Assembly (NCBI GenBank): GCA_965249615.1
Contig: CBDFMI010000006.1
Coordinates: 444,132 to 508,131 of the forward strand
DNA: 64,000 bases
Source: a bacterium
GTDB taxonomy: Bacteria > UBA8248 > JACPRG01 > G963555815
Direction of reading: 5' to 3'
The notes beneath the pieces were generated by a model. It made no database searches. It saw only the letters and a list, made by a program, of their open reading frames with translations, and was not told the origin of the DNA. This document shows positions 7,674 through 23,464 of this stretch, in pieces; position 1 is the first letter of the stretch, and each line of letters opens with the position of its first letter. Made by a program: the position numbers and the translations under genes.

Positions 7674-9794
7674 GTGGACGGTTTACAGTCAGATACTGGG
7701 AGCCGCTGGTCTCTTCTGTGGCGGGATTGTTTGGGGTGGCTATCGGTCTCAGCAGGTCTGGGTGTATTTGAATCGATCCTTCTGGCCTTCCAAAGACCTG
7801 AGATCAATCCCTTCGCAGTGATCGATCTTTTGGATCTCCTGAGCTCCGCCATCGTTTTAAATTCCTTGATGATTCTCCCAGTCTCAGCGGGCCATTTCCT
7901 CCTGTGTTTTCGCCTTTTGGGAGATCGCGACCGTCGGGCGCAGGGTCGAAACACGTTTTTATTCCACCTCGTTGTGTTCCTCGCGTTGGTGTTCACCATT
8001 TTTATTGGCCGAAGACTCATCTTCACGATCCCTGCAGCCATCGTGATCGCCACGGCCCTTTGGTTCGGACTGAAATATACACCCAGGCGGCTGGCCCGTA
8101 TGTTCGGGCTGGGTGTCACCGTTTTCCTGCTGGCCTTTCTTTCCTACGAATTTGCACGGCCATTTTATCCCCTAAAAAATCTCCGCGAGGTCCGGAACGA
8201 AGACAGCGCACTTCCAAATGTGCTCCTGGTGCTTGTGGATACGTTGCGGGCGGATCGGCTCTCCACATACGGCTATTCCAGGGAGACGTCCCCGTTCATT
8301 TCAAAGCTCGCGGGAGAGGGGGCGAAATTTACGAATTTCTATGCGAACGCGAGTTGGACTCCGCCGGCGACGGCAACGATTTTGACCGGCGTATTTCCCT
8401 CAATCCATGGAATAAACGGAACGTCGTTCCAAAAGAAGGCTCCGGTTAAGACGCTTTGTGAGGTTCTGCGCGGACACGGATACAACACGGCTGCGTTTGT
8501 CGCGAACCCATGGATCGGTGAGCGCAGTGGATTACTCGAAGGATGCGACTATCACAGCCCGATGTGGAACCCCTTTAGGCGAAACCACCAGAGACGTGAT
8601 GTCCCAGATCCATCCGCACCCTCTTTCCTGATCCTCGCCAGCGAGCCGATGCTGGAAAACATTTTCGTCTGGAGAAAGTTTGTTTTTTTGCCACGCATTT
8701 TCGTTTGGAATAGATTTGTTTCTTTGTCCGATAGGGTTGTAACCAGCCTTTTCATAATTGACAGGAAGAAGAGCCACCTCCTCCGCGGGGCATTTCGCCT
8801 AATTCAGGAGGTTGATGGAGATGGGAATGATAACCGAGAGGAGATAGAAAATCGCATTCCTCGTGCGGATGAGTTTACACATGGAGTCTTGAACTACGTC
8901 GATTATGTGGCATCGGTGGAAAACCATGATGGCCAAAGGACGAAATTCTTTATCTATCTGCACTATGTAGAACCGCATAGCCCGTATCAGTCACCTGGGC
9001 GCTATGGTCGCCTGTTTGATCCCCACTATCCGGATGAGCGTGTGACTGAGTATCCGGATCCGTCTGAAAATGGGACCACGCCGGAATTGCCGGATGCGCA
9101 GCTGCACAACCTTCAAGCACAATACGACGGAGAGACCCGTTACTTTGATGACAACTTCCAGTTCCTTTTCTCGAATCTAGAGGAAAGGGGGTTCGTGGAT
9201 AACACGTTGATTGTCTTTGTTTCTGACCATGGAGAGGAATTCTACGAGCATCGGGGATTTGGGCATGGGGGAACAGTCTTTGAGGAAGTGCTCAGAGTGC
9301 CTCCCATTTTATGGTACCCCGGCAGCTTGCCCGGCGGACTTGAGGTGGAGGAGCCGGGATCCCAGGTGGATCTAATGCCAACGATTATGGAGGTCCTCGG
9401 TCTTCCGGGGCCCGGGGATTTCCAGGGAAGAAGCTTGTTGCCGCTCATATATGGGGAGGAGAGCGGGGCGGCCATCTATGGAGAAAGCTCACGCGAGCCC
9501 CCTGGCCGCGAGCTTAGTTCTCATCGGTTTTTAGTTCATGGCCGATATAAATTTATCAACCAGGAAAAACCTGAGACAGAGCATGAAAAATTTCTTTTTG
9601 ACCTTCAGTTGGATCCGAACGAGCAAGAAAACATCTACGGCTCTGAAAAAAAGATAGCGGAAGAAATGGAGTTGCTACTGGAAAAATTCGTCACATTGGT
9701 CGAGAATGACCCCCGGTACTCTGAAAACCCAGAGGCCATCGGAGTTGACCCGGAACTGGAGGAGCGTCTGAAGGCTCTCGGATACGTTGAATGA
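7674..9794 (+). CDS. Membrane-anchored sulfatase-family (alkaline-phosphatase superfamily) protein, LtaS/EptA-like architecture, paralogue 1
   Basis: About 5 N-terminal TM helices, then VLLVLVDTLRADRLSTYGY, WTPPATATILTGVFPSIHG and VSDHGEEFYEH. Start codon is uncertain (GTG 7674). Confidence 0.8.
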   Translation: MDGLQSDTGSRWSLLWRDCLGWLSVSAGLGVFESILLAFQRPEINPFAVIDLLDLLSSAIVLNSLMILPVSAGHFLLCFRLLGDRDRRAQGRNTFLFHLVVFLALVFTIFIGRRLIFTIPAAIVIATALWFGLKYTPRRLARMFGLGVTVFLLAFLSYEFARPFYPLKNLREVRNEDSALPNVLLVLVDTLRADRLSTYGYSRETSPFISKLAGEGAKFTNFYANASWTPPATATILTGVFPSIHGINGTSFQKKAPVKTLCEVLRGHGYNTAAFVANPWIGERSGLLEGCDYHSPMWNPFRRNHQRRDVPDPSAPSFLILASEPMLENIFVWRKFVFLPRIFVWNRFVSLSDRVVTSLFIIDRKKSHLLRGAFRLIQEVDGDGNDNREEIENRIPRADEFTHGVLNYVDYVASVENHDGQRTKFFIYLHYVEPHSPYQSPGRYGRLFDPHYPDERVTEYPDPSENGTTPELPDAQLHNLQAQYDGETRYFDDNFQFLFSNLEERGFVDNTLIVFVSDHGEEFYEHRGFGHGGTVFEEVLRVPPILWYPGSLPGGLEVEEPGSQVDLMPTIMEVLGLPGPGDFQGRSLLPLIYGEESGAAIYGESSREPPGRELSSHRFLVHGRYKFINQEKPETEHEKFLFDLQLDPNEQENIYGSEKKIAEEMELLLEKFVTLVENDPRYSENPEAIGVDPELEERLKALGYVE

Positions 9795-9831
9795 AGGTTA
9801 AAGGGCTCGACTCGGACTTGGTGCACACAGC

Positions 9832-12039
9832 ATGAACCGCTGGTCCTTGCTTCGGCGAGATTTTTTGGGATGGCTGGCGGTTTCGGCAGGTCTGGGCGTA
9901 TTTGAATCGGTCTTGCTGGCCTTCCAAAGACCTAAGATCAACCCCTTCGCGGCCATCGATCTGGTCGCTCTTTCGATTTCTGCCGTCCTTTTCAACTCCC
10001 TGATGGTTCTACCCGTTTCACTCGGTCATTTTTTCTTGTATTGGCGGTTTTCTGGAGGCCACGACCATCAGGCGCAGGGCCGAAACGTCTTTTTATTTCA
10101 CCTCGTCGTGTTCCTCGCGGTTGCGTTCATCATTTTTATTGGCCGAAGGCTCATCCTTACGGTTCCTGCAACTATTCTGATGTCCGCGGGCCTTTGGTTC
10201 GGCCTTAGATATCTTTCGACAAGGATTGTTCGGGCATTTTCAGTAGGTGCCGGTATTTTCCTCTTGGCACTTTTTTCGTATGAGTCCCTCCGCTTGCCGC
10301 TCTATATCACAGACCCCGATTATGAACTATGGAAGTCGGAAGTTACGTTATGGGAGGAGGAAGACCCGCGATGTGAGACGCACCTGCGCTTCTCTACTCT
10401 CAACGGCGACCTGGGGTCCCTCGATTCCAGGAACTGTTCCAATTACTACCTGGAGAAGTTCAGGCAGGTAGAAGCGGAGCACCAATCACTGCCGAACGTT
10501 ATTCTGGTTCTTGTCGATACGCTTCGCCCCGATCACCTGTCCACATACGGCTATCATCGAGAGACATCGCCTTTTATTTCGAAGCTGGCGGCGGAGGGGC
10601 TAAAATTTACCAATTTCTATGCGAACGGTGCGTGGACCCCGCCGACGACTTCAACGCTTCTAACCGGCGTTTTTCCCGCAATCCATGGGATATATGAGCC
10701 TGGCGGGCAAAAGAGGGAGACAGTCAAAGTCATTTCTGAGACTCTCCGTGACTACGGCTATAACACAGCCGCCTTTATCGCGAATCCACTGATTACGAAA
10801 AGCACTGGGTTGCTGGACGGATATGATTATTTCTACCGAAAACCCAGGCCGCCGGTGTCGCGGCCGTCGTTGAGGCTCGCGAGCTTCCCCAGTCCGGAGA
10901 ACCTCCTCATATGGGTGAAGTTTCTGTCTCTGTCAGATAAGGTGGTCCAGGCGTTTCGGGGTTTTGATGGGAAGAAAAACGATCTTTTAGTTCAGATATT
11001 TCCCTTCAGCCGTGAATTAGAGCCAGAAAGACAGGAAAGGATACGGGAGGAATTCCGTTTCCCCCCCGCGGAAGTCGACATGGATAAAGAACTCGACTTC
11101 CCCCGGGCGAATGAAATGGCGAACGCGGTGCTGAATTACGTGGATTACGCCTTGGCAGGTCCTGACTTCGACGTTGTGCAAACGAAATTCTTCCTCTTTC
11201 TCCACGACATGGGTCCCCACGATCCTTATAAGTTGCCCACGCCATATGACGTCCTCTTCGACCCTGGGCGCCAGGATAGGCCGGAGGCCGAAGGGGCAGT
11301 CCGGTTTTTGGATGAGTCGCCGCCTGCGTCAGTTCGGGAGAGATTGGCCCATGATTTGCCGCTGTATGACGGAGCAATCCGTTTCTTCGATGATAATTTT
11401 CAGGTGCTCTTTTCGGAACTCAAGGAACGGGGGCTTTTGGACAATACCCTAGTGATCTTGCTGGCAGATCATGGGGAAGAATTCTATGAGCACGGTGAAA
11501 TTGGACATGGGGAGAAGGTCTTTGAGGAAATTGTCAGGATCCCCCTTGTCTTGTGGTATCCAGGGGAATTGCCCTAAGGGGTCGAGGTGAAGGAGTTCGG
11601 GTCGCAGGTGGATATAATACCCACGATCGTGGATGTTCTGGATCTGCCAGTACCAGAGGGGTTGCAGGGAAAGAGCCTCTTGCCCGCGATATCCGGGAGG
11701 GGGCTAGAGAGGGTTGTGTACGGAGAAAACTTGCGTGGTTCGCAGGATTTATCGTCGGGAGATATGTTGCGATTTTTGATCCATGGCCGATATAAACTCA
11801 TCACCATGGGGACACCTAAGACAGTGCGGGAAAAATTGCTCTTTGACCTCCAGTCGGACCCGCATGAGAAAAACAACATCTGCGGGTCTGAGAAAAAGAT
11901 AGCGGAAGAAATGGAATCGCTGCTAGAGGATTTCATCGCATTGGTGAAGAAGGACCCTAGGTATTCTGAAGACCTAGAGGCCGTTGAAGTGGACCCGGAA
12001 CTGCAGAAGCGTCTAAAGGCTCTCGGATACATTGAATGA
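9832..12039 (+). pseudogene. Paralogue 2 of the membrane-anchored sulfatase-family protein, interrupted by an in-frame TAA (11575-11577)
   Basis: Track ORFs 9832-11577 and 11587-12039 share one frame and together align along the whole of paralogue 1: ...WYPGELP*GVEVKEFGSQVDIIPT versus ...WYPGSLPGGLEVEEPGSQVDLMPT. Confidence 0.75.
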
Positions 12040-12129
12040 GGGTTAAAAAGTTCGCGTCGATCCTGGTGAAAAAGCAGGCTCACCTTTGGCCCGCGATCGG
12101 GTTTTTAGTTTGAGAGGACGTGGGTAAGA

Positions 12130-13806
12130 ATGTCCATCTCCAAGGTCGCCCTCCTGGGTCTTGACGGTGCCACCTTCTACCTCCTTCGCCCCTGGATGGA
12201 GGATGGAACGCTCCCCAATCTTGCGAACCTCCAAAAACGGGGAGCCTCTGGGGTCCTTGCCTCCACCGTTCCACCGGTGACACCGACGGCCTGGTCCACG
12301 TGCATCACGGGGGTAAACCCGGGAAAGCACGGGATATTCGATTTTCGAGATTCTCCCCTCCGTCATCCCGACCGCCCCCTTCTGAGTCTATCCTCTATCC
12401 GCGCCCCCCGGCTCTGGCAGCTCCTGAATGGGGTCGGGAAAAAGACCATCATCCTCAATGTCCCCATGACTTATCCACCTGAGGCGGTGGACGGGTGCAT
12501 GGTCTCGGGGATGATGACACCGGGGCCGGAGGCGAACTACACTTATCCCCTGGAACTCAAGGCGGAGATCCGTCGGGAGATCGGAGAGTACCTGCCGGAT
12601 ATCGACCTGCCCAAGTACGACGCCGAGCGTTATGAGGATGCCCTGGCATACCTGGACTTGATACGGAAAAGTTTTTCCCAGCGGGAAAAACTTTTCTTCC
12701 ACCTCATGGAGAACCGGCCCTGGGATTTCTTCATGGGGGTTTTCATCTTGCCCGACCGGCTCCAACACGTCTTCTGGAAATATCTGGACCCTGAGGCCGG
12801 GCTCTACGGGACCGAGATCGCCCAGCGGCTCCGAGGCTCGGTCATTGACTGCTATCGTCTGATGGATGATTTTATCGGGCGCCTCGTGGAGCGGCTTTCC
12901 TCTGATACCCTCCTTCTTATCATGTCGGACCACGGTTTTGGACCCACCCAGGCCTGGATCAACGTGAGCACCTGGCTGGAGCAGCAGGGTCTCCTCAAGA
13001 TGAGGGGCCAGATGGCCCTGCAGCGACGCCTCTTGTACCATGCTGTGGGGCTGAACGAGGTGGGCTGGCTAAAACGCCTTATCCCGCAGTCCCTTCAGGC
13101 CTTCGCCCGAAAACGGGTGCGTCAGACCAAGTCCGCCTTTCGGACCGACGTTCAGGTCACCCTGGACTGGGATCGGACCCAGGCCTTTTTTCCCAGCATT
13201 CCGGCTCAAGGGATCTACATCAATGTGGAGCGGGACGGAGCGGGGATCGTCCCCCCGGGGGAGGCCTACGAGGCCCTGCGCGCTCGGCTTCGCGATTCGT
13301 TGCTGGCCCTGAAGGACCCGGCGACAGGGGAACGGATCGTGGACGCGGTGCAGTATCGAGAAGAGGTCTACCACGGGCCCGAAACCCCCTACGCCCCGGA
13401 CCTGTTCTTCGTCGCCCGAAATTACAGCTACCTGGGCCGGCCGATGTTTGGGGGCCGAGAGGTCATCCGGTCGCGCGTCCAGGTGCCAAACGGCTTTCAC
13501 CGCCCCGACGGGATCTTCATGGCTCATGGACCTCACGTGGCCTCGGGCCGGGCGGTCACTGGCTCCCACATCGCTGACATCACCCCCACCATCCTCTATA
13601 GTCTCGGCCTCCCCGTCCCAAAAGAGATGGACGGAAAGCCTTTGTCGGAGATCTTTGAGGCGGACTTTCGGCCCGAGAAGAAGGGCCAAGAGGTGAGCGC
13701 TACTGAAAGTCCACAGCCGCCTGAGAGGACTCCCTCTGAGGCTTATCGTCCCGAGGAGGCCTCCGCCATCGAGAAACGCCTTCGGGCCCTGGGGTATGAG
13801 GACTGA
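12130..13806 (+). CDS. Type I phosphodiesterase/nucleotide pyrophosphatase-like (NPP, alkaline-phosphatase superfamily) protein 1
   Basis: ALLGLDGATF, PPVTPTAWSTCITGVNPGKHGIFDF and LLIMSDHGFG are metal-ligand and Thr-nucleophile motifs of the NPP family. Confidence 0.8.
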   Translation: MSISKVALLGLDGATFYLLRPWMEDGTLPNLANLQKRGASGVLASTVPPVTPTAWSTCITGVNPGKHGIFDFRDSPLRHPDRPLLSLSSIRAPRLWQLLNGVGKKTIILNVPMTYPPEAVDGCMVSGMMTPGPEANYTYPLELKAEIRREIGEYLPDIDLPKYDAERYEDALAYLDLIRKSFSQREKLFFHLMENRPWDFFMGVFILPDRLQHVFWKYLDPEAGLYGTEIAQRLRGSVIDCYRLMDDFIGRLVERLSSDTLLLIMSDHGFGPTQAWINVSTWLEQQGLLKMRGQMALQRRLLYHAVGLNEVGWLKRLIPQSLQAFARKRVRQTKSAFRTDVQVTLDWDRTQAFFPSIPAQGIYINVERDGAGIVPPGEAYEALRARLRDSLLALKDPATGERIVDAVQYREEVYHGPETPYAPDLFFVARNYSYLGRPMFGGREVIRSRVQVPNGFHRPDGIFMAHGPHVASGRAVTGSHIADITPTILYSLGLPVPKEMDGKPLSEIFEADFRPEKKGQEVSATESPQPPERTPSEAYRPEEASAIEKRLRALGYED

Positions 13807-13807
13807 G

Positions 13808-14878
13808 ATGGCAGGTCTGATGACGAAAGTCTCCCATGCCCTTCGAGGGGGTTGGGGGACCCTTTTGAAGGTCGGGGTGAGTGGACTGCTCATCCTTGTC
13901 CTCATTTGGCAGGTGGATTTCGATCGGCTTTGGGTCGTCGTCCGGGATATGTCCCCCGCCTGGCTCCTCCTGGCGCTCTTCTTCAAGTCGGGAGGGGTAT
14001 TCTCGAGCATCCTTCGGTGGCGAGTGCTTCTGAAGGGACAGGACCTCGCCGTCCCTTTAAAAGTCCTCACCTCCTCCTTTCTCGAAGGCCGTTTCTTCGG
14101 CACCTTCACGCCGAGCACCATCGGCCTTGACGCCTATCGAACGTATGACCTGGCCAAGTATTCCGGCCGAACAGCGGCCTCGGTTTCAGTCACATTGGTG
14201 GATAAGGTGATCGGGCTGTTCTCTCTCTCCTTTCTCGTGGCGGTCACCTCATTTGCCGGCGCCCGGTTTGTTGGAGGGCAAGGGGTCTTCTCCCTTCTCC
14301 TCGTCTTCTGTGTCCCCCTCTCCCTGTCCCTGATCTTTCTCCTTTTTCCGGGGCTCCTTGGCCGACTCGTCGACATCAGGAGGTGGAAATCAGGAGGATG
14401 GGCGGAGAAGATGGGCCGTTTCGTCGAAACCGTCACCGTCTATCGCCACCACCGGATCCTCATTGTTCAGGCGGTCGGGCTCGCTATCTTGGTCCACCTT
14501 GGGACCACGCTCATGTATTACGGGACGGCCCTTTCGGTGCAAGCCCCGGTCAGCCCCTTGGACATCCTCTTCGTTGGGCCCCTGATGATCACGGCGACGG
14601 TCATCCCTCTTTCTGTGGCCGGGATCGGGGTCCGTGAGGGGACCTTTGTCTTCTTCCTCACTCGGGTGGGGATCGAGGCGGAGGCCGCCATCCTTCTCGC
14701 CTTTCTCGGGTTCCTCGTAGGCGAGGTCATCAGCCTTTTCGGAGGCTTCATCTTCCTGTTGCGCTCCCACGCGTATCATCGGCGTGAGGGGGGGGTCGCC
14801 GGGGCCGCGGAAAGCGGCCTGGGCAAAGCCGGGGGTGAGGAAGAGGCCGTGGGGACAAAGAAAGAGATTGGCTCTTGA
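13808..14878 (+). CDS. UPF0104 / lysylphosphatidylglycerol-synthase-TM-region family 'flippase-like' membrane protein
   Basis: SILRWRVLLKGQ...FLEGRFFGTFTPSTIGLDAYRTYDL motif and about 8 TM helices. ATG 13808 lies 1 nt after the upstream TGA and is preceded by GAGGA. Confidence 0.75.
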   Translation: MAGLMTKVSHALRGGWGTLLKVGVSGLLILVLIWQVDFDRLWVVVRDMSPAWLLLALFFKSGGVFSSILRWRVLLKGQDLAVPLKVLTSSFLEGRFFGTFTPSTIGLDAYRTYDLAKYSGRTAASVSVTLVDKVIGLFSLSFLVAVTSFAGARFVGGQGVFSLLLVFCVPLSLSLIFLLFPGLLGRLVDIRRWKSGGWAEKMGRFVETVTVYRHHRILIVQAVGLAILVHLGTTLMYYGTALSVQAPVSPLDILFVGPLMITATVIPLSVAGIGVREGTFVFFLTRVGIEAEAAILLAFLGFLVGEVISLFGGFIFLLRSHAYHRREGGVAGAAESGLGKAGGEEEAVGTKKEIGS

Positions 14879-16551
14879 GACGCCTCCTCATCATCGGCGT
14901 CGACGCCGGCACCCTGGACCTCATCGAGCCGTGGGCCCGAGCGGGTGATCTCCCCCATCTGGCCCGTCTCCTCAGGGAGGGGGCCTATGGGCGAGTCCAG
15001 TCGACCCTCCCCCCCTCCACCTATCCCGCCTGGACCTCCTTCATGACCGGTCAGAACCCCGGGCGGCACGGTCTCGTGGACTTCACCTTGAGGGAGGGAG
15101 GGCGCTATGCCGTCAGATTCGCCAGCTCCCGAGACCGGCAAAGTGCTAGTTTGTGGGGGATCCTCAGTGAGGCCGGCCGAAGAGTCGCCGTCCTCGGCAT
15201 GCCCGCCACATACCCCCCTGAAGCCGTCAACGGCTGTATGGTCAGCGGATTCGACTCCCCCCTAGCATGGCGTCTCAACGAGAGCTTTTTTCATCCTCGA
15301 GGGCTCCACCGGGAGGTCATACAGGAGGCGGGACTCTTCCCGCTCTCGGCCTGCCGGGAGGATCGGATCGGAAAGGGCTGGCACGAGCGGGCCTATCGGG
15401 AGATCCTGAAATCACTGGAGCAAGAAACTCGCGTGGCGGAGTACCTCCTGGGCCGGGAAGCGTGGGATTGCTTCTGCGTCGTCTTCGGCCAGACAGATAC
15501 GGTGTGCCATCATTTCTGGAAATTCTTCGACCCATCCTCTCCCCGATATGACTCAGAGGGGGCGAGGCGCTTTGGAGACGCCATCCGTCAAGTCTATCGG
15601 CGTGTGGATTCAGCCATCGGTTCCCTGCTGCAAAAGGCGCCCGATGACGTCACGGTCCTCATCGTCTCGGACCACGGAGCGGGGGGGGCAGGAAACCAGA
15701 TTATTCATTTAAACGCTTGGCTGGCCGGGGAGGGCCATCTGACCTTTCGAAAGGGGGGGGTGGGCTACCGTGCCCTTTCAGCCCTGAAGACGCTGGGCCT
15801 CGGCTATCTCCCGAGGAGGGTTCAAGAACAGGTCTTTCGTGCGGGCGGGGGCAGGCTGGCAAATGGGCTAGAATCCCGCTTGCGTTTCGGCCAGATCGAA
15901 TGGGCGAAGACCCGGGTCTATTCCGAGGAGCTGGGTTATTTCCCCTCTCTTTGGATCAACCTTCGGGGGAGGGAGCCTCAGGGGACGGTGGAGCCCGGCA
16001 GGGAATATGAGGATCTGAGGGACGAGATCATCAGCCGCTTAGAGGTTCTCAGACACCCCGTCACGGGGAGGCGCCTCGTTGAGCGGGCCGTTCGGCGAGA
16101 GGAGGTTTATTGGGGCCCCTTTGTGGACCGGGTTCCTGACATTCTCCTGGAGCTCGCCCTCGACGAGGGCTATAGCTACTCCTGCCTTCGAAGTCCAGCC
16201 CGCTCCCAGGGCCCCTTCGTTCGCTCTCTCCAGAGAGCGGAGGGGGCCAGGGGCCAGGGGATGAACGGCTCACACCGACCAGAGGGGTTTTTCGTTCTCT
16301 CGGGTGAGGGGGTGCGCCCGGGGAAGTGCCGGTTCACCCCCCATCTCATGGACTTTGCCCCGACGCTTCTCGCCCTTTTGGGGATCACCCCTTCGGTGGG
16401 GATGGACGGTCGGGTCTTGGAAGAAGTCCTGAGCGTCCCTGAGCCTCATCCCGTCCCCGTCGCCGTGGCAGGGGAAGAGACGCCTTCGGCGGCCCAGGGG
16501 TGGGAAGGCACGGCCTTCCGGCGGCTTCGGGACCTTGGATACCTGGAATGA
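14875..16551 (+). CDS. NPP-like alkaline-phosphatase-superfamily protein 2
   Basis: Paralogue of 12130-13806 (IIGVDAGTLD, PPSTYPAWTSFMTGQNPGRHGLVDF, LIVSDHGAGG). The TTG start overlaps the upstream stop (TTGA). Confidence 0.8.
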   Translation: MRRLLIIGVDAGTLDLIEPWARAGDLPHLARLLREGAYGRVQSTLPPSTYPAWTSFMTGQNPGRHGLVDFTLREGGRYAVRFASSRDRQSASLWGILSEAGRRVAVLGMPATYPPEAVNGCMVSGFDSPLAWRLNESFFHPRGLHREVIQEAGLFPLSACREDRIGKGWHERAYREILKSLEQETRVAEYLLGREAWDCFCVVFGQTDTVCHHFWKFFDPSSPRYDSEGARRFGDAIRQVYRRVDSAIGSLLQKAPDDVTVLIVSDHGAGGAGNQIIHLNAWLAGEGHLTFRKGGVGYRALSALKTLGLGYLPRRVQEQVFRAGGGRLANGLESRLRFGQIEWAKTRVYSEELGYFPSLWINLRGREPQGTVEPGREYEDLRDEIISRLEVLRHPVTGRRLVERAVRREEVYWGPFVDRVPDILLELALDEGYSYSCLRSPARSQGPFVRSLQRAEGARGQGMNGSHRPEGFFVLSGEGVRPGKCRFTPHLMDFAPTLLALLGITPSVGMDGRVLEEVLSVPEPHPVPVAVAGEETPSAAQGWEGTAFRRLRDLGYLE

Positions 16552-17768
16552 GTGGAGAGAAAGGATCTCGTCGGAAGGTGGCCATGGTGGCCCCCTGTCC
16601 CTTCCCAAGCGTTCAGGGCTCCCAGATCCTGATCCAGGATCTGGCCGGGGGCCTCGAGAGGAGGGGACACGAGGTCCACGTGGTCACTTACCCCTTCGGG
16701 GGCTCCCGTCCGACCGCTTCCTTGCGGATCCACCGGGCTGCCTGTCCCCTTCGTTATGCCGTGGACCACCCGGGCCCTCATCTCTATAAACCTTTTCTGG
16801 ACCTCTTCGTCTTGAGAGAGCTCCTGCGGGTCATCCGCGGGGAGGGGATTGAGCTCCTCCACGCCCACAGCTATGAGGGGTTGCTCATCTCCCTGCTGGC
16901 CGGAAGGTGGACGGGCATTCCCGTCCTCTATCACAGCCACACCCTCCTCGAGGAGGAGCTCCCCACCTATTTTCGGGCCTCGTGGAAGCGCGCCCTGGCG
17001 CATTGGGTGGGCCGACTGCTGGACCGACAGCTTCCGCGTCGGTCAGACCATTGCATTGCCCTTTGTCAGAGAACCCTTGGGGCCTTTCGGGCCTTGGGGG
17101 TGGCGGCGGATCGCTCTTCCTGCATTCGTCCTCTGATCTTTTCCCCCGCCGATAAAACTCCTTCCAGGGTGGATGTAGAGCGCCATCCCTTCATCCTCTA
17201 TACGGGAAACCTCCACCCGTATCAGGATCTCAATCTCCTGATGGAGGGGTTCGCCGAGGTGGCCTCGAGGCTCTCAGAGGTCCGCCTGGTTATCGCCACC
17301 CATTCTGACCCTTCCCATTACGCCGCCCTGGCAAGGGCCCTGGGGCTGTCGGAGCGGGTCTCCTTTCGCGTGAAACCTCCCTTGGATGAAGAGTGGGGTT
17401 TGATGCGGAGGGCCGACCTCCTCGTCTGTCCGCGCCTTCGGTGCTCCGGCTACCCCATCAAGCTTTTGAACTACCTGGCGGCTGGAAGGCCCATCCTCGT
17501 CAGTGAGGGCTCGGCCGAGGGGATTCGCCATGGCGAGAACGGCTACGTTGTCTCTCGGCCTGAACCGAAAACCCTGGCGGAGGGGGCTATTCAAATCCTT
17601 CAGTCCCCCGCCTTGGCAAAACGGTTGGGCGAAGGGGCGGCCCGGACCTACCGGGAGGAGGTGGCGGAAGAGCGCTCCTTGTCGGCCATCGAGGCCATCT
17701 ACACGCAGTGTCTGGGGGAGGAGGGGAACGCGGCCCTCCTCGCCCACCCGAGGGAAATGGCCTCATGA
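16548..17768 (+). CDS. Glycosyltransferase family 4 (GT-B fold)
   Basis: KVAMVAPCPFPSVQGSQILIQDLAGGLERRGHEVHVVT N-terminal and C-terminal GYPIKLLNYLAAGRPILVSEGSAEGIRHGENGYVV (E-x7-E region). The ATG overlaps the upstream stop (ATGA). Confidence 0.85.
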   Translation: MSGEKGSRRKVAMVAPCPFPSVQGSQILIQDLAGGLERRGHEVHVVTYPFGGSRPTASLRIHRAACPLRYAVDHPGPHLYKPFLDLFVLRELLRVIRGEGIELLHAHSYEGLLISLLAGRWTGIPVLYHSHTLLEEELPTYFRASWKRALAHWVGRLLDRQLPRRSDHCIALCQRTLGAFRALGVAADRSSCIRPLIFSPADKTPSRVDVERHPFILYTGNLHPYQDLNLLMEGFAEVASRLSEVRLVIATHSDPSHYAALARALGLSERVSFRVKPPLDEEWGLMRRADLLVCPRLRCSGYPIKLLNYLAAGRPILVSEGSAEGIRHGENGYVVSRPEPKTLAEGAIQILQSPALAKRLGEGAARTYREEVAEERSLSAIEAIYTQCLGEEGNAALLAHPREMAS

Positions 17769-19168
17769 CCAAGGTCTTGATCCTGGGCCTCGATTGCGCA
17801 GACCCTCGCCTGGTCTTTGACCGCTGGCGACAAGAACTTCCGAACCTCAGACAGCTCATGGAGGCCGGCGTCTGGGGCCCTCTTCAGAGCACCATCCCCC
17901 CCATCACGGTCCCAGCCTGGGCCTGCATGATGACGGGGCGGGACCCTGGAGAGCTAGGGATCTATGGGTTCCGAAACCGGACCTCCTATCAGTACGGGGC
18001 CCTGGGGATCACCAGCTCTCTCTCGGTCCAAGAGGAGACCCTGTGGGACATCCTGGGCCGCACCGGCCGGGAGGTGGTGGTCGTCGGGGTCCCTCCTTCA
18101 TATCCTGTGAAGCCCGTCCGGGGCAGCCTCATCTCCTGCTTTCTCACCCCGAACGCCGAGGTCCCTTTCACGCATCCCCCTGAGCTCAAGGAGGAGGTTC
18201 AGCGTCTTGCCGGCGGGTACCTGTTTGACGTGGAGGGATTCCGGACCGACGACAAGCCCCGGCTCCTCCAACAGATCCACGAGATGACAGAAAAACGCTT
18301 TAGGGTCCTGAAACACCTACTCACCCGAAAGCCGTGGGACTTTTTTATGTCGATGGAGATCGGGGTGGACCGCATGCATCACGGCTTTTGGAAATTTCAC
18401 GATGAGGGCCACATCAAGCACCCCCCGCAAAACCCCTATCAGCACGTCATTCTGGACTATTACCGCTATGTGGACAAGGAGATCGGTGAGCTGGTGGAGT
18501 CCGTCGACGAGGACACGGTCATCATCGTCCTCTCTGATCACGGGGTGAAGAGGATGGAGGGGGGGCTGTGCGTCAACGAATGGCTCATGAAGCAGAAATA
18601 TCTGAGCCTCTCCGCCTACCCCAAGGAGCTCACCTCCCTCAGCAAGCTCGATGTGAACTGGGACCGGACCATGGTCTGGGGAGAAGGGGGGTACTATGGC
18701 CGGATCTATCTCAACGTAAAGGGCCGGGAACCCCAGGGGGTCATCGCCCCAAATGACGTGGAGAAGATCCGGGCAGAGCTGAAACAGGGCATGGAAGAGC
18801 TTTCCGACGAATCAGGGCGCCCCCTCGGGACCCGCGTATTCTATCCCGAGGAGGTCTATCAGGAGGTCCGGAGGATCCCGCCCGATCTCATCGTCTATTT
18901 TGGAGACCTGGACTGGCGCTCTGTCGGGACCGTGGGCCATGGCTCGATCCACACCCGAGAGAATGACACGGGCCCTGACGACGCCAACCACGACACCCAC
19001 GGGATATTCATCATGGCGAAGAAGGCGGACCTCAAAGGGGGCGGGACCGGTCTGGGAACCCGCCTCGACGGTCTCAGCCTCTACGACGTGACCCCCACCG
19101 TCCTGGACCTCCTTGGCCTTCCCATCCCACCCTCGATGCACGGGCGAGTGATTTCTCCTAGAGCCTGA
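17765..19168 (+). CDS. NPP-like alkaline-phosphatase-superfamily protein 3 (divergent)
   Basis: LILGLDCADP, PPITVPAWACMMTGRDPGELGIYGF and IVLSDHGV. ATGA overlap with the GT4 gene. It lacks the shared C-terminal tail, and the HG of the TG-x-x-PG-x-HG motif is LG here. Confidence 0.8.
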   Translation: MTKVLILGLDCADPRLVFDRWRQELPNLRQLMEAGVWGPLQSTIPPITVPAWACMMTGRDPGELGIYGFRNRTSYQYGALGITSSLSVQEETLWDILGRTGREVVVVGVPPSYPVKPVRGSLISCFLTPNAEVPFTHPPELKEEVQRLAGGYLFDVEGFRTDDKPRLLQQIHEMTEKRFRVLKHLLTRKPWDFFMSMEIGVDRMHHGFWKFHDEGHIKHPPQNPYQHVILDYYRYVDKEIGELVESVDEDTVIIVLSDHGVKRMEGGLCVNEWLMKQKYLSLSAYPKELTSLSKLDVNWDRTMVWGEGGYYGRIYLNVKGREPQGVIAPNDVEKIRAELKQGMEELSDESGRPLGTRVFYPEEVYQEVRRIPPDLIVYFGDLDWRSVGTVGHGSIHTRENDTGPDDANHDTHGIFIMAKKADLKGGGTGLGTRLDGLSLYDVTPTVLDLLGLPIPPSMHGRVISPRA

Positions 19169-19305: not shown

Positions 19306-20034
19306 ATGGCCCAGGAGGGGGTGAACATGGGCGAGCTTTCTTCCACGGCGAAGCGTGCTGTCTCAGCCTACGGCGGGGCCGATCGCTGGCGAAACGCACG
19401 GGCCATCGAGGCTGTGGTCTCGGCCAACGGCTTGGGCTTCCGCTTGAAGTGGCGGCGTCCTGCCCCAAATGCGGACGTCCGGGTGGAGATAGCGGAACCG
19501 GTCGTCAGGATGGATCTCAAAGATAGCGAGGGGCACATCGGCGTGATGGACCGGGGAGACGTGAGGATTGAGACGTCTTCTGGTAAAGTCGTGGCCTCAC
19601 GGCCGAATCCAGAACACCTGTTTCCCTACGGGCGAAGGGCTTTTTGGTGGGATCGGCTCGACCAGATCTACTTCTCAGGGTACGCCTTGTGGAACTACAT
19701 GACGCTTCCGGCCCTGTTGCTCAGGGACGACATCCAATGGGAGGAGCTCAGAGAGGGGAGCCTTCAGGCGCGTTTTCCCAAACATCTTCCAACACATTGC
19801 GAGGTGCAGCAGTTTCATTTCGAGCCGGCCACAGGGCTCCTGCGCCAGCTCGACTACACGGCGGAGGCCTTCGGAAACTGGGCCAAGGCCGCGAACGTGG
19901 TTTTGGAGCACGGCGAATCGGAGGGGATTCCTTATCCTTCACTGCGTCGGGTTACCCCGCGCCGAGGGGACGGCAGCCCGCGCAAGGGGCCGCTCCTCGT
20001 CGGGATCGAATTCCATCGATTCCGGCTCGTCTAG
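19306..20034 (+). CDS. Hypothetical protein (no signal peptide, no recognised domain)
   Basis: Long ORF with codon usage like its neighbours, located downstream of the promoter-like element. It ends 8 nt before the convergent cysC stop. Start may be 19306 or 19327. Confidence 0.5.
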   Translation: MAQEGVNMGELSSTAKRAVSAYGGADRWRNARAIEAVVSANGLGFRLKWRRPAPNADVRVEIAEPVVRMDLKDSEGHIGVMDRGDVRIETSSGKVVASRPNPEHLFPYGRRAFWWDRLDQIYFSGYALWNYMTLPALLLRDDIQWEELREGSLQARFPKHLPTHCEVQQFHFEPATGLLRQLDYTAEAFGNWAKAANVVLEHGESEGIPYPSLRRVTPRRGDGSPRKGPLLVGIEFHRFRLV

Positions 20035-20042
20035 TCCCCAAT

Positions 20043-20675
20043 CTAGTCGATATATCCCAAGCCCTTCAGTTTGGCCTGGATGGTCTGCTTCTCTTCCTCG
20101 GAATAGACGTAATCGGCGGGCTCGATGTAACCGAATTCTTCCAGCCGAGAGAGAATATGCGCGACAGATTCCTTAACCGACTCTTTGTCCGTCTCGACGG
20201 TTATCTCGGGGTTGAGGGGCTCTTCATAGGGGTCTGAGACCCCCGTAAAATTCTTAATCTCACCCTTAAAAGCTTTCGCGTACATCCCTTTCACGTCCCG
20301 TTCTGCGCAGACCTCAACAGGGCATTTGACGTAGAGCTCCACGAAGCGCCCCACCTCGGCCCTTACGGCGTCTCGGATGGCCCGGTAGGGGGCGATGACC
20401 GCCGCCATGTTGGGAACCCCGTTTCGGGTCAAGAGGTGACAGAGGTATCCCAGGCGAATGATGTGCTTATCGCGGTCCTCTTTGGAGAAGCCGAGGTCGG
20501 CGCTGAGATTGCGGCGCACTTCGTCGCCGTCGAAGACCTCGACGTTCGGAAAACCGCGCTCGTGAAGTTTCTCTCCGAGAAGAACGGCAATCGTGCTTTT
20601 CCCTGAGCAGGGAAGGCCTGTGAACCAGACCGTGAACCCTCTGGGTTTATCTTTGATCACTTTCTCTCTCCTCAA
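20043..20675 (-). CDS. cysC: Adenylylsulfate (APS) kinase with C-terminal extension
   Basis: GFTVWFTGLPCSGKSTIA P-loop and FDGDEVRRNLSADLGFSKEDRDKHIIRLGY. An extra tail of about 35 aa ends in LKGLGYID. Confidence 0.9.
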   Translation of the reverse strand: MRREKVIKDKPRGFTVWFTGLPCSGKSTIAVLLGEKLHERGFPNVEVFDGDEVRRNLSADLGFSKEDRDKHIIRLGYLCHLLTRNGVPNMAAVIAPYRAIRDAVRAEVGRFVELYVKCPVEVCAERDVKGMYAKAFKGEIKNFTGVSDPYEEPLNPEITVETDKESVKESVAHILSRLEEFGYIEPADYVYSEEEKQTIQAKLKGLGYID

Positions 20676-21850
20676 GAGCCGCCGTCAGAACCCTGTCCTG
20701 CCCGCTCGGCGTAAGCCTGGTGCAAGACCCGGGCGACTTCAGGCCGCATCACCTCCGGGGGTGGAAGCTCCCCGCGGTCTAAAATTTCCCTCACACGAGT
20801 TCCGCTCAGGAAGACGCGCTCTTTCTCCCCGTGGGGGCAGGTCTTGGCCGTTATCATGGCCTCACACCCACGGCAGTAGAAGGCGTGGTCGAAGAAGAGA
20901 GGGGTGATCCCGATCTCCGAGGCCTCGAACTCGTGGAAGATATGGTGGGCGTCATAGGAGCCGTAGTAAGACCCGACGCCGGCGTGGTCCCGGCCCACGA
21001 TGAAATGGGTACAGCCGTAGTTCTTTCGCACGATAGCGTGGAAGATGGCCTCCTTCGGCCCGGCGTAGCGCATGGCCGCCGGAAACACGGAGAGGACCGT
21101 CCGGTTCTTGGGAAAATAGCTCTCCAGGATCACCCTGTAGGAGGCCATCCGGAGGTCCGCCGCCAGGTCGCCCTCCTTGGTGGCCCCGACCAGGGGATGA
21201 AGTAGGAGGCCGTCCACACATTCTAGGGCGCACTTCTGAATGTACTCGTGGGCGCGATGAATGGGGTTTCGGGTCTGGAAGGCCACGACCGTCTTCCACC
21301 CCTTGAGCTGAAAGAGAAGGCGGGTCTCCTTGGGTTCCAGATGGAAGTTGGACCACTCGGTGGCGGCCCCTCTTCGAAGGAGTTTAATAGGCCCCCCGAT
21401 GAGGACAGGGCCTCGCTCGAAGACCTGGCGAACCCCGGGGTGGTCCGAATCTTTTGTCCCGAAGACCTGCTCCACCTCCCTCTCCTTGTCCGGCTTCCAC
21501 TGAGAGGTGACCCGAAGAAGCCCGGTCGTTTCCTTCCCGACCGTGAGGGTAATCTCGTCACCTATGGAAAGGGTCTGGGCCGTCTTCTCATCCACGCCGA
21601 GGACGATGGGAAGCGTCCAGGGAAGGCCCAAGGCGAGGCGCTGGTCTTCCACCACAGCCTGGTAGTCCTCCTCCTCCATGAATCCCCTTAGGGGGCTGTA
21701 GGCCCCCGTCGCGATGAGTTCGAGATCGGAATGCTCCTGGGCCGACAGGGCGATTTTCGGCAGCCCTTGGGCTTTTTTGTCCAAGGCGGGCCGATCCTCC
21801 TCCCGGACCATCCGGTCGACGAGGACCCCGCCGTGCGGTTTGATAGGCAC
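20672..21850 (-). CDS. sat: Sulfate adenylyltransferase (ATP sulfurylase, homo-oligomeric Sat type)
   Basis: QTRNPIHRAHEYIQK, HPLVGATKEGD and GRDHAGVG motifs. 4-nt overlap with cysC. Confidence 0.9.
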   Translation of the reverse strand: MPIKPHGGVLVDRMVREEDRPALDKKAQGLPKIALSAQEHSDLELIATGAYSPLRGFMEEEDYQAVVEDQRLALGLPWTLPIVLGVDEKTAQTLSIGDEITLTVGKETTGLLRVTSQWKPDKEREVEQVFGTKDSDHPGVRQVFERGPVLIGGPIKLLRRGAATEWSNFHLEPKETRLLFQLKGWKTVVAFQTRNPIHRAHEYIQKCALECVDGLLLHPLVGATKEGDLAADLRMASYRVILESYFPKNRTVLSVFPAAMRYAGPKEAIFHAIVRKNYGCTHFIVGRDHAGVGSYYGSYDAHHIFHEFEASEIGITPLFFDHAFYCRGCEAMITAKTCPHGEKERVFLSGTRVREILDRGELPPPEVMRPEVARVLHQAYAERAGQGSDGGS

Positions 21851-22045: not shown

Positions 22046-23464
22046 TTATCTCCCGGTGGCGGGCTCTAAATTCACCTCGATATAGCGCGCAATCTGGGGG
22101 TGGACTCGGGAGATCTCGTGGTAGATCTGCTGAGCCGCCCTCCGGTAGGTGAAGTGCCCCTTGGGGTCGGAGCGGAGCTTCACCACGTGCATCACCTCCC
22201 GGAGGTTCATCTGCCAGAGGAAGCGGCGGTGATGAGCGTTTAGGACAAAGTAGGGGGCCTCGTTCGGAAAATCCGCCAAAAACTTCTCAAAACACTTCTC
22301 GGCCTTGTCCACCCCTGCCAAATATTCTTGTTTCAACCCGGCGTCCTCGACGAGCTCGGGGATCGAGAACCCGTGGCGGATGGTCGGGGCCTGAGTGCTC
22401 TGGCTGCACATCCGGTGGCGCTTGAGGTCGAGGAAGGCCCCCTGGTCCACGAGACACTCGAAGGTGTAGGTCAGGTACTCCATCTCCCGGATGGGGATGT
22501 CAAAACGCTCTATTCGGCTCAGGGCCTCTTCAATGACTTTTTCCCGAGCTTCTTGGGGCATCTGTGCCACCCTCTCCCGGATGGCCTCGTAGGGGAGATG
22601 ACTGTATTTGAACAAGATGGCCGCCGCCAGGGCGACGTCGGGGTTTTCGGGGACCTGAACCAGCCGGGCATAATTTTCCTGAGGGCCGGACGCCTTTGAG
22701 ACCGGGGAGCCGTTGGTCATGGTAGAGGCGACGAGCTTCCTGAGGGCCGCCTCCGTGTCTCTCAGATAGGCGTTGTCGTCTGCATACTTGACGAGGGTTG
22801 GGGCGGCCGCCTGGCTGACCTCCTTCAGGGTGGTCCCGATCTGTTGGATTTCGGACAGGTCGTGGGAGAGCATCTTGGTGATGGCGTGCTCCAGGTGTCG
22901 GGCGTTGACGGTCATCCCCACATTGGCCAGGGCGGCGGTGGGGAGGAGAAAGCGCGAGCGGTCGAGGGCGTGGGCCCTCACGCGGACGTTGTATCCCCGA
23001 TCCGTCTCGTTCTCCCTCCTTTGGAGGACCCCCTTCTCTTTGATGAAGGCGTCCAGCTTCGTCTGGACGGCGTGGTAGTTCTCGAACATCCACTGCATGG
23101 CCTCGCGGTATTTTTGGCCGAGGGGTGAGGCGTCCACCTCGTCTGGGACATAATAGTCGTCCGGCTTGAAAACCTGATAGCGGGAGGATTTTTCGGTGTA
23201 GGAGGCGAGACGGTTCGCCTCGATGACTTCCGTTGCGTAGCGCGAAACATTCTCGATGGCGATGGAGAGGACGGCGTGCTCGGCCACCGAGGCGTGCCCA
23301 TAGCCGACGACCCATTTCTCATGGAACTCGGCCGAGGCGCTTTCGGTCAGCTCCTTGGCGATCTCGTCAAAGGCCTTTGGGGAGCGACTCGTCTTCGCGA
23401 AGGCGACGGCGACCACCTCGGGCGGGAGGTCCCGGAGGAGATAGATGCGGCGTTTTTTGTCCAT
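22046..23464 (-). CDS. ThyX-like FAD-dependent thymidylate synthase family protein, double-domain (about 470 aa) form
   Basis: N-half: GHASVAEHAVLSIAIENVSRYATEVIEANRLASYTEKSSRY. C-half: YTFECLVDQGAFLDLKRHRMCSQSTQ and the VKLRSDPKGH tail. These are ThyX signature elements spread over two halves. Confidence 0.7.
   Translation of the reverse strand: MDKKRRIYLLRDLPPEVVAVAFAKTSRSPKAFDEIAKELTESASAEFHEKWVVGYGHASVAEHAVLSIAIENVSRYATEVIEANRLASYTEKSSRYQVFKPDDYYVPDEVDASPLGQKYREAMQWMFENYHAVQTKLDAFIKEKGVLQRRENETDRGYNVRVRAHALDRSRFLLPTAALANVGMTVNARHLEHAITKMLSHDLSEIQQIGTTLKEVSQAAAPTLVKYADDNAYLRDTEAALRKLVASTMTNGSPVSKASGPQENYARLVQVPENPDVALAAAILFKYSHLPYEAIRERVAQMPQEAREKVIEEALSRIERFDIPIREMEYLTYTFECLVDQGAFLDLKRHRMCSQSTQAPTIRHGFSIPELVEDAGLKQEYLAGVDKAEKCFEKFLADFPNEAPYFVLNAHHRRFLWQMNLREVMHVVKLRSDPKGHFTYRRAAQQIYHEISRVHPQIARYIEVNLEPATGR

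Follow-up and report, generated by a model that had tools for sequence, protein, structure and literature searches.

The stretch of DNA considered here, 64,000 nucleotides of contig CBDFMI010000006.1 (hereafter the window), comes from an uncultured diderm bacterium and encodes Nuo, Tol-Pal, AsmA and SLT/LysM proteins. In its first third, a tight row of genes lying all on one strand extends from S1 to NPP3, and about 0.9 kb downstream, on the minus strand, follow cysC and sat, the genes of adenosine 5'-phosphosulfate (APS) kinase and ATP sulfurylase. Five products of this row, S1, S2, NPP1, NPP2 and NPP3, are metalloenzymes of the alkaline phosphatase (AP) superfamily whose predicted nucleophile is Thr and not formylglycine (fGly). 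The closest relatives of the cluster genes are annotated as Nitrospinota or Tectomicrobia.

The row opens on the plus strand with S1 (7674..9794), a predicted membrane-anchored protein of 706 aa read from a GTG at 7674, which matches Sulfatase (PF00884, 1.4e-43) and SGSH_C and whose orthologue in the near-identical genome L001 has 698 aa. S2 (9832..12039, plus strand) encodes another paralogue of the sulfatase fold, which shares 51% identity with S1; an in-frame TAA (11575..11577) lies within this gene. NPP1 (12130..13806, plus strand; 558 aa; Phosphodiest PF01663, 5e-35) is followed by the gene of a flippase-like membrane protein (13796..14878, plus strand; LPG_synthase_TM PF03706 and TIGR00374) and by NPP2 (14875..16551, plus strand; 558 aa), a member of the same nucleotide pyrophosphatase/phosphodiesterase (NPP) clade and Pfam family as NPP1. 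The next gene encodes a GT4-family glycosyltransferase (16500..17768, plus strand), whose start is probably near 16562 by comparison with L001. NPP3 closes the row (17765..19168, plus strand; Pfam 9.5e-51); its open reading frame (ORF) opens at 17708, the likely start is the ATG at 17765 that overlaps the GT4 stop, and the starts of its homologues correspond to this ATG. On the other strand, cysC (20043..20675, minus) matches APS_kinase (1.8e-55), and sat (20672..21850, minus), with PUA_2 and ATP-sulfurylase domains, encodes an ATP sulfurylase of the homo-oligomeric type.

Nucleophile and metal sites of the five proteins

The motif around the nucleophile was found in the plus-strand translation of each gene: SWTPPATATILTGVFPSIHGI in S1 (8352-8414; Thr229, codon 8358-8360), AWTPPTTSTLLTGVFPAIHGI in S2 (10630-10692; Thr269, codon starting at 10636), PPVTPTAWSTCITGVNPGKHGI in NPP1 (12271-12336; Thr51, codon starting at 12280), PPSTYPAWTSFMTGQNPGRHGL in NPP2 (15010-15075; Thr49, codon starting at 15019) and PPITVPAWACMMTGRDPGELGI in NPP3 (17897-17962; Thr67 in ORF numbering, codon starting at 17906). 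In phmmer alignments against the PDB, Thr229 of S1 falls on residue 69 of human arylsulfatase A (ASA), the fGly position, and on the Ser/Cys of S-x-P-x-R in 7oz8, 5g2v and 3ed4. The string w-T229-P-P-A-T233 pairs with S-T-P-A-R or S-G-P-S-R of the PDB sulfatases, Thr233 taking the place of Arg73, and S2 reads T-P-P-T-T at the aligned position. Residues of ASA bear their standard numbers (Asp30, fGly 69, Arg73, Lys123, His125, His229 and Lys302). The Thr of the three NPPs aligns with T90 (PSLTFPNH) of Xanthomonas NPP and their SDHG with D257/H258, both by a 40-sequence profile and by NPP1 alone. The nucleophile Thr is invariant in the 53 aligned sequences of the S1 family and in the 40 aligned NPP sequences, and it was found in 117 of 120 NPP3-family proteins, the other three being unmatched by the scanning pattern; with such conservation in all three families, its occurrence at this position is not a matter of chance.

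A regular-expression scan of the five proteins retrieved no [CS]-x-P-x-R, and the looser [CS]-x-[PA]-x-R retrieved only S-E-A-x-R strings distant from the nucleophile. The Pfam scan covered about 46 ORFs of the window, some small ones being left out; it revealed no FGE-sulfatase or radical-SAM maturase (anSME) domain, and no Sulfotransfer (1-5) match either among these ORFs or in the cluster proteins. FGE, anSME and canonical sulfotransferase domains are equally absent from the recurrent neighbours of the NPP3 loci described below. In NCBIfam, no curated cut-off is reached by any of S1, S2, NPP1, NPP2 and NPP3. A preliminary description of this DNA had placed all five proteins among Thr-type enzymes, without Cys/Ser-x-Pro-x-Arg and without a maturase or FGE gene nearby. 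The empty scans agree with it, as do the HMMER alignments against NPPs and arylsulfatases, which put Thr, not Ser or Cys, at the nucleophile column. Its count of five needs amending, for all five genes carry the motif but only four are intact: S2, with its in-frame TAA, is probably inactivated. At the homologous codon, the sister contig L087 has CAA (Gln). The TAA therefore stems either from a C->T nonsense mutation or from an error in the reads, and programmed recoding was rejected on account of the CAA of L087. The sisters L001 and L003, of the same species-level cluster, possess only the S1 type and L087 only the S2 type; the window strain has both in tandem. Over 8001-12000, the region of both paralogues, the GC content falls to 52% from the roughly 60% of the remaining window, a dip that may reflect lateral acquisition.

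S1 consists of five to six N-terminal hydrophobic segments followed by the catalytic domain. Its best PDB matches by phmmer, 7oz8 (1.7e-30) and 5g2v (2.4e-30), are both fGly sulfatases, and an AF2 model of the catalytic domain (pLDDT 82, with a low-confidence insert of about 80 residues at model residues 135-217) retrieved with Foldseek the phosphonate-monoester hydrolase (PMH) 4uph, the Mn-arylsulfatase EfAS (9koq), 7oz8 and choline sulfatase at E values of about 1e-25. The sulfatase fold, an N-terminal AP-like domain with a C-terminal subdomain, is thus present in S1 and S2. The residues are another matter. The key positions of S1 are D189, T229 (the nucleophile), P231, T233 (for Arg), H435, D518, H519, H526 and H531. 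In the HMMER alignments with 7oz8 and ASA, fGly is replaced by Thr229, Arg73 by Thr233, Asp30 (the Asp of the second metal) by Thr190 and Lys302 by His531, and the Lys and His of GKWH (K123 and H125 of ASA) by A277/N278 and P279/W280. D189, H435 (the His of PHxPY, equivalent to ASA His229) and D518-H519 are kept. Conserved in the S1 family are D-T-L-R-A-D, nearly the "DGLRAD" motif of Xanthomonas NPP, T-x-P-[SA]-[HTV] and SDHGE-x3-EH-x4-HG; in S1 and S2, the two conserved His after the DHG motif stand in for the lost sulfate-binding Arg, Lys and His. The closest 120 homologues of S1 are mostly of the Thr type, many being annotated as "arylsulfatase A-like" and many fused to TPR repeats. In EfAS, mutation of the equivalent residues (Q21, C61, R65, K110, H112, H220 and K324) abolishes activity or nearly so (PMC12421950). 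As judged from these alignments, S1 and S2 are Thr-nucleophile metalloenzymes built on a sulfatase/PMH scaffold and not sulfatases; hydrolysis of sulfate esters is unlikely because fGly and the equivalents of Arg73, Asp30, Lys123, His125 and Lys302 are missing.

Membership of S1 and S2 in the LtaS/EptA family was considered and rejected, the NCBIfam scores of S1 being 36 bits for CptA (cut-off 900), 29 for EptA (561) and 27 for LtaS (970). No LtaS or EptA chain occurs among the best 60 of the 82 PDB matches of the full protein or among all 56 matches of its nucleophile region. The "LtaS-type" label of the preliminary description is therefore to be dropped: fold and descent are those of fGly sulfatases and PMH.

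The two-metal site of the NPPs (Asp, Thr, Asp-x3-His, Asp-His, His) comprises D12, T51, D209, H213, D267, H268 and H457 in NPP1, D10, T49, D208, H212, D266, H267 and H467 in NPP2, and D29, T67, D221, H225, D277, H278 and H428 in the NPP3 ORF, or D10, T48, D202, H206, D258, H259 and H409 when numbered from the start M20. These seven residues are invariant in all 40 sequences compared, namely NPP1-3 and 37 homologues. The Thr and the SDHG were placed by alignment to Xanthomonas NPP, whose site residues are D54, T90, D210, H214, D257, H258 and H363, and the other metal ligands were assigned by motif. The Pfam scores of NPP1, NPP2 and NPP3 against PF01663 are 122, 148 and 174 bits for a gathering cut-off of 23. 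Searched alone with phmmer against the PDB, NPP3 gave no match and a family profile was required; its AF2 model (pLDDT 95, pTM 0.94) matched with Foldseek ENPP1/3, Xanthomonas NPP, ENPP5/6/7 and the phosphonoacetate hydrolase PhnA (E 4e-17 to 1e-13) at 13-17% identity. All three proteins begin directly with the first β-strand, the metal Asp being residue 10-12, which leaves no signal peptide; a cytoplasmic location, unusual among NPPs, follows. NPP1-3 are thus, by their predicted features, cytoplasmic members of the NPP clade with a complete two-metal site.

NPP3 is the most conserved protein of the cluster, its family being 50-60% identical across phyla. Close to the position of N111 of Xanthomonas NPP, an Asn that hydrogen-bonds the phosphoryl group in transfer, it has a conserved N90 two residues off register (YGFRNR), where NPP1 and NPP2 have D/F/R. 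Relative to these two paralogues, the NPP3-specific conserved polar residues (numbered from M20) are YGFR70-N71-R72, R160, K164, R203, H205, H216, R313 and R385, with a further stretch N400-D401..D405..N408. The His of the "HG" pair, which the preliminary description considered lost by NPP3, perhaps at the cost of catalysis, corresponds to Leu in about 112 of the 120 closest homologues and to His in none of them; in place of the TG just before it, TS or SS is the usual reading. Because this absence is family-wide, the site residues are invariant and conservation is strong, NPP3 is not a decayed paralogue, and a degenerate, non-catalytic protein was discarded as a candidate explanation.

The NPP3 family, its neighbours and a shared C-terminal tail

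Searched exhaustively with HMMER, the 1.84 billion representatives of 50%-identity clusters yielded 15,305 matches to the NPP3 family, of which 3,236 have E≤1e-30. When a single genome of each GTDB species was scanned by pattern, 75 loci with an NPP3 homologue were obtained; E values from the locus scans are relative to the candidate stretches only, and shadow ORFs arising in high-GC loci (such as L033 4771-7539, without Pfam match) were set aside using Pfam. The loci belong to Actinomycetota, Chloroflexota, Acidobacteriota, Methylomirabilota, Hydrogenedentota, Nitrospinota, Verrucomicrobiota, Bipolaricaulota, Armatimonadota, Bacillota (Thermoactinomyces, Croceifilum, Baia), Planctomycetota (Kolteria) and others, and the family occurs in cultured Thermoactinomyces, Chloroflexus and Kolteria.

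Either sat or cysC lies within 2.5 kb of NPP3 in 47 of the 75 species loci. Where the flanks measure 2.5 kb or more on either side, which holds for 51 loci, the figure is 31; 23 loci have both genes. The usual orders are sat-NPP3-cysC(-PHP), cysC-sat-NPP3 and cysC-NPP3; the Actinomycetota operon reads sat-NPP3-cysC-PHP, and in about a dozen loci cysC adjoins NPP3 without sat. The PHP protein, present in eight loci, matches 3e0f and 2yb1 (E 6e-33 and 3e-29), the latter being the pAp (3',5'-bisphosphonucleotide) phosphatase Cv1693. Sat and NPP3 are encoded as one ORF in L002, L025, L033, L060, P0171, P0175 and P0364. Other fusions join NPP3 to APS kinase (P0368), to an NTP_transferase domain (P0475), to a GT2 glycosyltransferase (P0390), to pyruvate kinase (P0496) and, in the NPP3-pyruvate-kinase-Sat protein P0453, to two enzymes on one polypeptide, an arrangement that recalls the mixtures used in vitro for regeneration of 3'-phosphoadenosine 5'-phosphosulfate (PAPS). 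The NPP3 family thus appears to be a dedicated partner of sulfate activation.

Genes for GT2, GT4, epimerase, Wzx and rml proteins also recur beside NPP3, Thr-type S1-like proteins occur in 14 of the loci, and the NPP3 of L080 belongs to a polysaccharide cluster of the Wzy/NeuB kind. No canonical sulfotransferase is encoded in the operon rmlA-B-D-C-?-GT2-GT-cysC-NPP3-DUF4937 of Thermoactinomyces (L024). In Thermoactinomycetaceae, the DUF4937 protein always follows cysC-NPP3 in this rhamnose-glycan operon (L024 11456-12151; also L029, L031 and L032), which makes it a further candidate for the missing PAPS-using step.

The remaining genes of the row recur without sulfate genes. NPP2 represents a conserved family of its own, about 50% identical across phyla, typically found in the order S1-like, NPP2, GT4. 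It occurs as Sulfatase-NPP2-GT4-Wza-Wzz-Wzy in the exopolysaccharide cluster L085 and as Phosphodiest-flippase-Sulfatase-NPP2-GT4 in L086, with no sat or cysC nearby in either. No general link of Thr-type S1-family homologues to sat, cysC or NPP3 was found in L082-L084, and the link of this family to sulfate genes is limited to the members beside NPP3 (the 14 loci mentioned). S1-NPP1-flippase-NPP2-GT4 is a recurrent module, probably of glycolipid or polysaccharide modification.

A short C-terminal tail, [RK]L[KR]xLGY[ILV][DE] followed by the stop and preceded by an acidic stretch, connects the two sets of genes. It ends S1 (RLKALGYVE, 9768-9794, plus), S2 (RLKALGYIE, 12013-12039, plus), NPP1 (RLRALGYED, 13780-13806, plus), NPP2 (RLRDLGYLE, 16525-16551, plus) and CysC (KLKGLGYID, 20043-20069, minus) and no other window ORF of at least 100 aa; NPP3 of the window has no LGY tail. 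Across the window and the loci (87 sequences, 1.39 Mb), L..LGY lies within two residues of the stop in 54 of 5,526 ORFs, 50 of which are S1-like, NPP1/2-like or CysC proteins plus one NPP3, and the other four lie immediately beside NPP3. The tail is carried by 107 of 120 NPP2-family proteins, 5 of 120 of the NPP3 family, 9 of 33 non-self CysC proteins and 63 of 120 of the S1 family; 32 further members of the latter contain the motif at an internal position, many as TPR fusions. It was never seen on Sat, GT4 or the flippase-like protein. Its distribution suggests a common docking partner or a complex that would couple the AP-fold enzymes to the synthesis of PAPS. By the positive-inside rule, the catalytic domain of S1 would more probably lie outside (C-out), to which a tail shared with cytoplasmic CysC runs counter; those S1-like proteins that adjoin NPP3 in Nitrospinota and Chloroflexia are soluble, with neither transmembrane segment nor export signal.

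Three of the four remaining tail ORFs encode small proteins of about 100-130 aa located directly after NPP3 in Hydrogenedentota (L028 1949-2389, L048 11319-11768 and L067 8516-8890). They resemble degenerate APS-kinase domains without P-loop, reading GVNAAET where APS kinase has GLPCSGKST, and may be a regulatory or docking remnant.

Elsewhere in the window, a 242-aa ORF between NPP3 and cysC (19306-20034, plus) has no Pfam or NCBIfam match and no homologue in the fetched loci; in L001 the same gap holds the gene of a Trypsin_2 peptidase on the minus strand instead. Beyond sat, a 472-aa ORF (22046-23464, minus) contains two stretches that match Thy1 (ThyX). With roughly double the length typical of ThyX, as also in L001, it may represent a flavin-dependent thymidylate synthase that was fused or duplicated in tandem. 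Further on, a 688-aa protein (38231-40297, minus) consists mostly of pentapeptide repeats (8 Pfam stretches, 221 bits).

Possible roles in sulfate activation and glycoconjugate modification

We consider it moderately probable that the locus unites, with substrates assigned by conjecture, a glycoconjugate module of Thr-nucleophile AP enzymes and NPP3, a by-product hydrolase, beside sat and cysC. Two linked modules would then be at work, S1-NPP1-flippase-like-NPP2-GT4 and NPP3-cysC-sat. In the first, S1, NPP1 and NPP2 would form a covalent intermediate at Thr and so attach or remove a substituent that contains a phosphoryl or sulfuryl group, acting on the glycolipid or polysaccharide that GT4 makes. 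In the second, NPP3 would hydrolyse a by-product of the pathway through a phospho-Thr intermediate; our best guess is the pyrophosphate (PPi) released by ATP sulfurylase, whose removal would pull the unfavourable synthesis of APS and PAPS. That NPP3 itself is a cytoplasmic hydrolase with a Thr nucleophile and two metals, acting on a by-product of sulfate activation and most probably on PPi, is put forward tentatively, with somewhat more reserve than assurance.

The reading of NPP3 as a by-product hydrolase comes from the one trait common to its partners, all of which produce or consume by-products of sulfate activation. Pyruvate kinase turns the ADP from APS kinase back to ATP. PPi is proposed as the substrate because Sat and nucleotidyltransferases, sugar-phosphate types included, both release it and its hydrolysis pulls their equilibria. 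The removal of pAp appears to be a role already filled, since the Actinomycetota operon includes a candidate pAp phosphatase (PHP). A small, universal and highly anionic substrate would also fit both the 50-60% identity across phyla and the extra conserved Arg, Lys and His. Fusions of ATP sulfurylase with inorganic pyrophosphatase exist in stramenopiles and haptophytes and have been given the same pulling rationale (PMC2275785).

Several points weigh against PPi hydrolysis by NPP3. The literature searched yielded no paper on the biochemistry of these families. For canonical NPPs, PPi is a product and not a substrate, and diesters are preferred. An enzyme modifying an acceptor would fit at least equally well the dozen or so loci with cysC-NPP3 and no sat, the Thermoactinomyces rml-GT-cysC-NPP3 operon devoid of sulfotransferase and the presence of NPP3 in the Wzy/NeuB cluster of L080. 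Finally, the tail that CysC shares with S1, NPP1 and NPP2 hints at direct receipt of PAPS and hence at transfer of sulfuryl, not phosphoryl, groups.

These points lead to an alternative that we judge unlikely and yet serious, in which NPP3 and/or NPP1, NPP2 and S1 would be AP-fold sulfotransferases moving the sulfuryl group of PAPS or APS via Thr to the glycolipid or polysaccharide made by GT4, in a ping-pong reaction as in EptA or LtaS with sulfate in place of the phosphate group. The sat-NPP3-cysC-PHP operon, if PHP is the pAp phosphatase, is short of only the PAPS-consuming step, and neither the recurrent neighbours nor the Thermoactinomyces operon supply a canonical sulfotransferase for it. 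The tail common to CysC, NPP1, NPP2 and S1 suggests one complex, NPP3 lies within polysaccharide clusters and is fused to GT2 in one protein, and the cysC-NPP3 pairs lacking sat keep a transferase alive as an option. On the other hand, all PAPS-dependent sulfotransferases known to us are of one fold, unrelated to the AP fold, and Zn/Thr sites of the AP type are weak at sulfuryl transfer. The conservation of NPP3 is too high for an acceptor-specific enzyme, its fusions with pyruvate kinase and NTP transferase better suit a housekeeping by-product enzyme, and NPP2/S1-like modules often have no sat or cysC nearby. A more elaborate form, which we regard as improbable, would have a Sat/CysC/NPP3 metabolon, joined by the tail EEExxIxxRLxxLGY[ILV][DE], feeding APS or PAPS to NPP1, NPP2 and S1, and these sulfating the GT4 product via sulfo-threonine; it would be the first system known to transfer sulfuryl groups with the AP fold.

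A reading in line with the preliminary description, in which the five would be ordinary phosphodiester hydrolases or phospho-headgroup transferases acting on envelope polymers, with sat and cysC as incidental neighbours, seems to us similarly improbable. A Thr nucleophile together with two metals is what marks the chemistry of NPP, LtaS and EptA, and the predicted N-terminal multi-transmembrane anchor of S1 resembles that of LtaS and EptA. The S1-NPP2-GT4 module is found in exopolysaccharide clusters without sulfate genes, and S1-family homologues elsewhere are unlinked to sat or cysC. That description preferred phosphodiester to sulfate-ester chemistry; it was right in so far as S1 and S2, deprived of the sulfatase residues, are unlikely to hydrolyse sulfate esters, but it overlooked the sulfate-activation context. 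The cluster abuts sat and cysC, and in many phyla members of the NPP3 family share a locus or a polypeptide with enzymes of sulfate activation; sulfonucleotide metabolism is therefore the relevant setting.

Within that setting, NPP3 could also be a nucleotidase acting on pAp or on PAPS/APS to recycle or regulate the sulfonucleotide pool, which we hold to be quite improbable. NPP3 does adjoin and fuse with cysC, the NPP fold has an adenine-nucleotide slot and the closest structural neighbours of NPP3 are ENPP1/3 bound to AMP and pApG; pAp is moreover a strong inhibitor that needs removal. However, the PHP/TrpH-type candidate for this task is present in the same operon in eight loci, the NTP transferase fusion and the tight Sat fusions point to PPi, and hydrolysis of APS or PAPS beside their own synthase would be futile. 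Very improbable, lastly, is that S1 and S2 still act as sulfatases on sulfate esters with Thr or an unmodified residue: sulfatases are their nearest relatives by sequence and fold, and His435 and the D/D-H metal ligands are kept, but the equivalents of fGly, Arg73, Asp30, Lys123, His125 and Lys302 have all been replaced, and mutation of the corresponding residues leaves EfAS with little or no activity (PMC12421950).

Comparison with known systems

Thr-type enzymes of the AP superfamily (NPP, LtaS, EptA, PafA, PhnA) are well known, and the reclassification of the five proteins, though correct, is for this reason unsurprising. Three things appear undescribed in the literature searched: within the structural clade of sulfatases and PMH, a large lineage with Thr in place of fGly; an NPP-like family, cytoplasmic and of very large size, tied to ATP sulfurylase, APS kinase and pyruvate kinase; and the shared C-terminal tail. 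The outline of the paper on Sam10, an "unprecedented sulfotransferase", gives no link to the AP fold. The Thr-carrying S1 family includes thousands of proteins called "sulfatase" or "arylsulfatase A-like" from Acidobacteriota, Planctomycetota, Chloroflexota and further phyla, and sulfatase counts in studies of carbon and sulfur cycling are inflated because these proteins carry Thr and not fGly. The NPP3 family appears to be an unrecognised and widespread part of bacterial sulfate activation. Should NPP3 be a dedicated pyrophosphatase, this would account for the GTP-independent forward pull on homo-oligomeric ATP sulfurylases; if NPP3 or its tail-bearing relatives transfer sulfate, they would represent a new sulfotransferase fold. 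The tail, found on APS kinase and two AP-fold families, offers a testable handle on a multi-enzyme complex.

With the NPP/ENPP enzymes (2gsn; ENPP1-7, PF01663), NPP1-3 share the fold (Foldseek E 4e-17), the Thr at a helix start in T-x-P and the six metal ligands. They differ by being cytoplasmic, by an identity of only 13-17%, by some 80-170 extra residues, and by the LGY tail of NPP1 and NPP2. The NPP3 family in particular has no "HG" His and many added conserved Arg, Lys and His, and its partners are Sat, CysC and pyruvate kinase rather than those of extracellular nucleotide metabolism. S1 and S2 depart from fGly sulfatases and PMH (7ebp, 7oz8, 4uph, EfAS 9koq and human ASA) by Thr for fGly, Thr for the Arg of CxPxR and the lack of equivalents of Asp30, Lys123, His125 and Lys302 (the last replaced by His531), and further by a predicted multi-transmembrane anchor, the 80-residue low-confidence insert and the LGY tail. 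S1 resembles LtaS, EptA, MCR-1 and PbgA in combining a predicted N-terminal transmembrane bundle with a sulfatase-fold domain, a Thr nucleophile and Asp/Glu, Asp and His metal ligands, and it would share with MCR-1 an extra His about 12 residues after the DH pair. The closest parallel for the proposed role of NPP3 is provided by the fusions of ATP sulfurylase and pyrophosphatase, with or without APS kinase, of stramenopiles and haptophytes (PMC2275785). These employ a canonical family-I pyrophosphatase, whereas the enzyme described here is an NPP-like member of the AP superfamily with a putative substrate; in both cases a hydrolase placed at ATP sulfurylase and APS kinase pulls, or in the present case would pull, the formation of APS.

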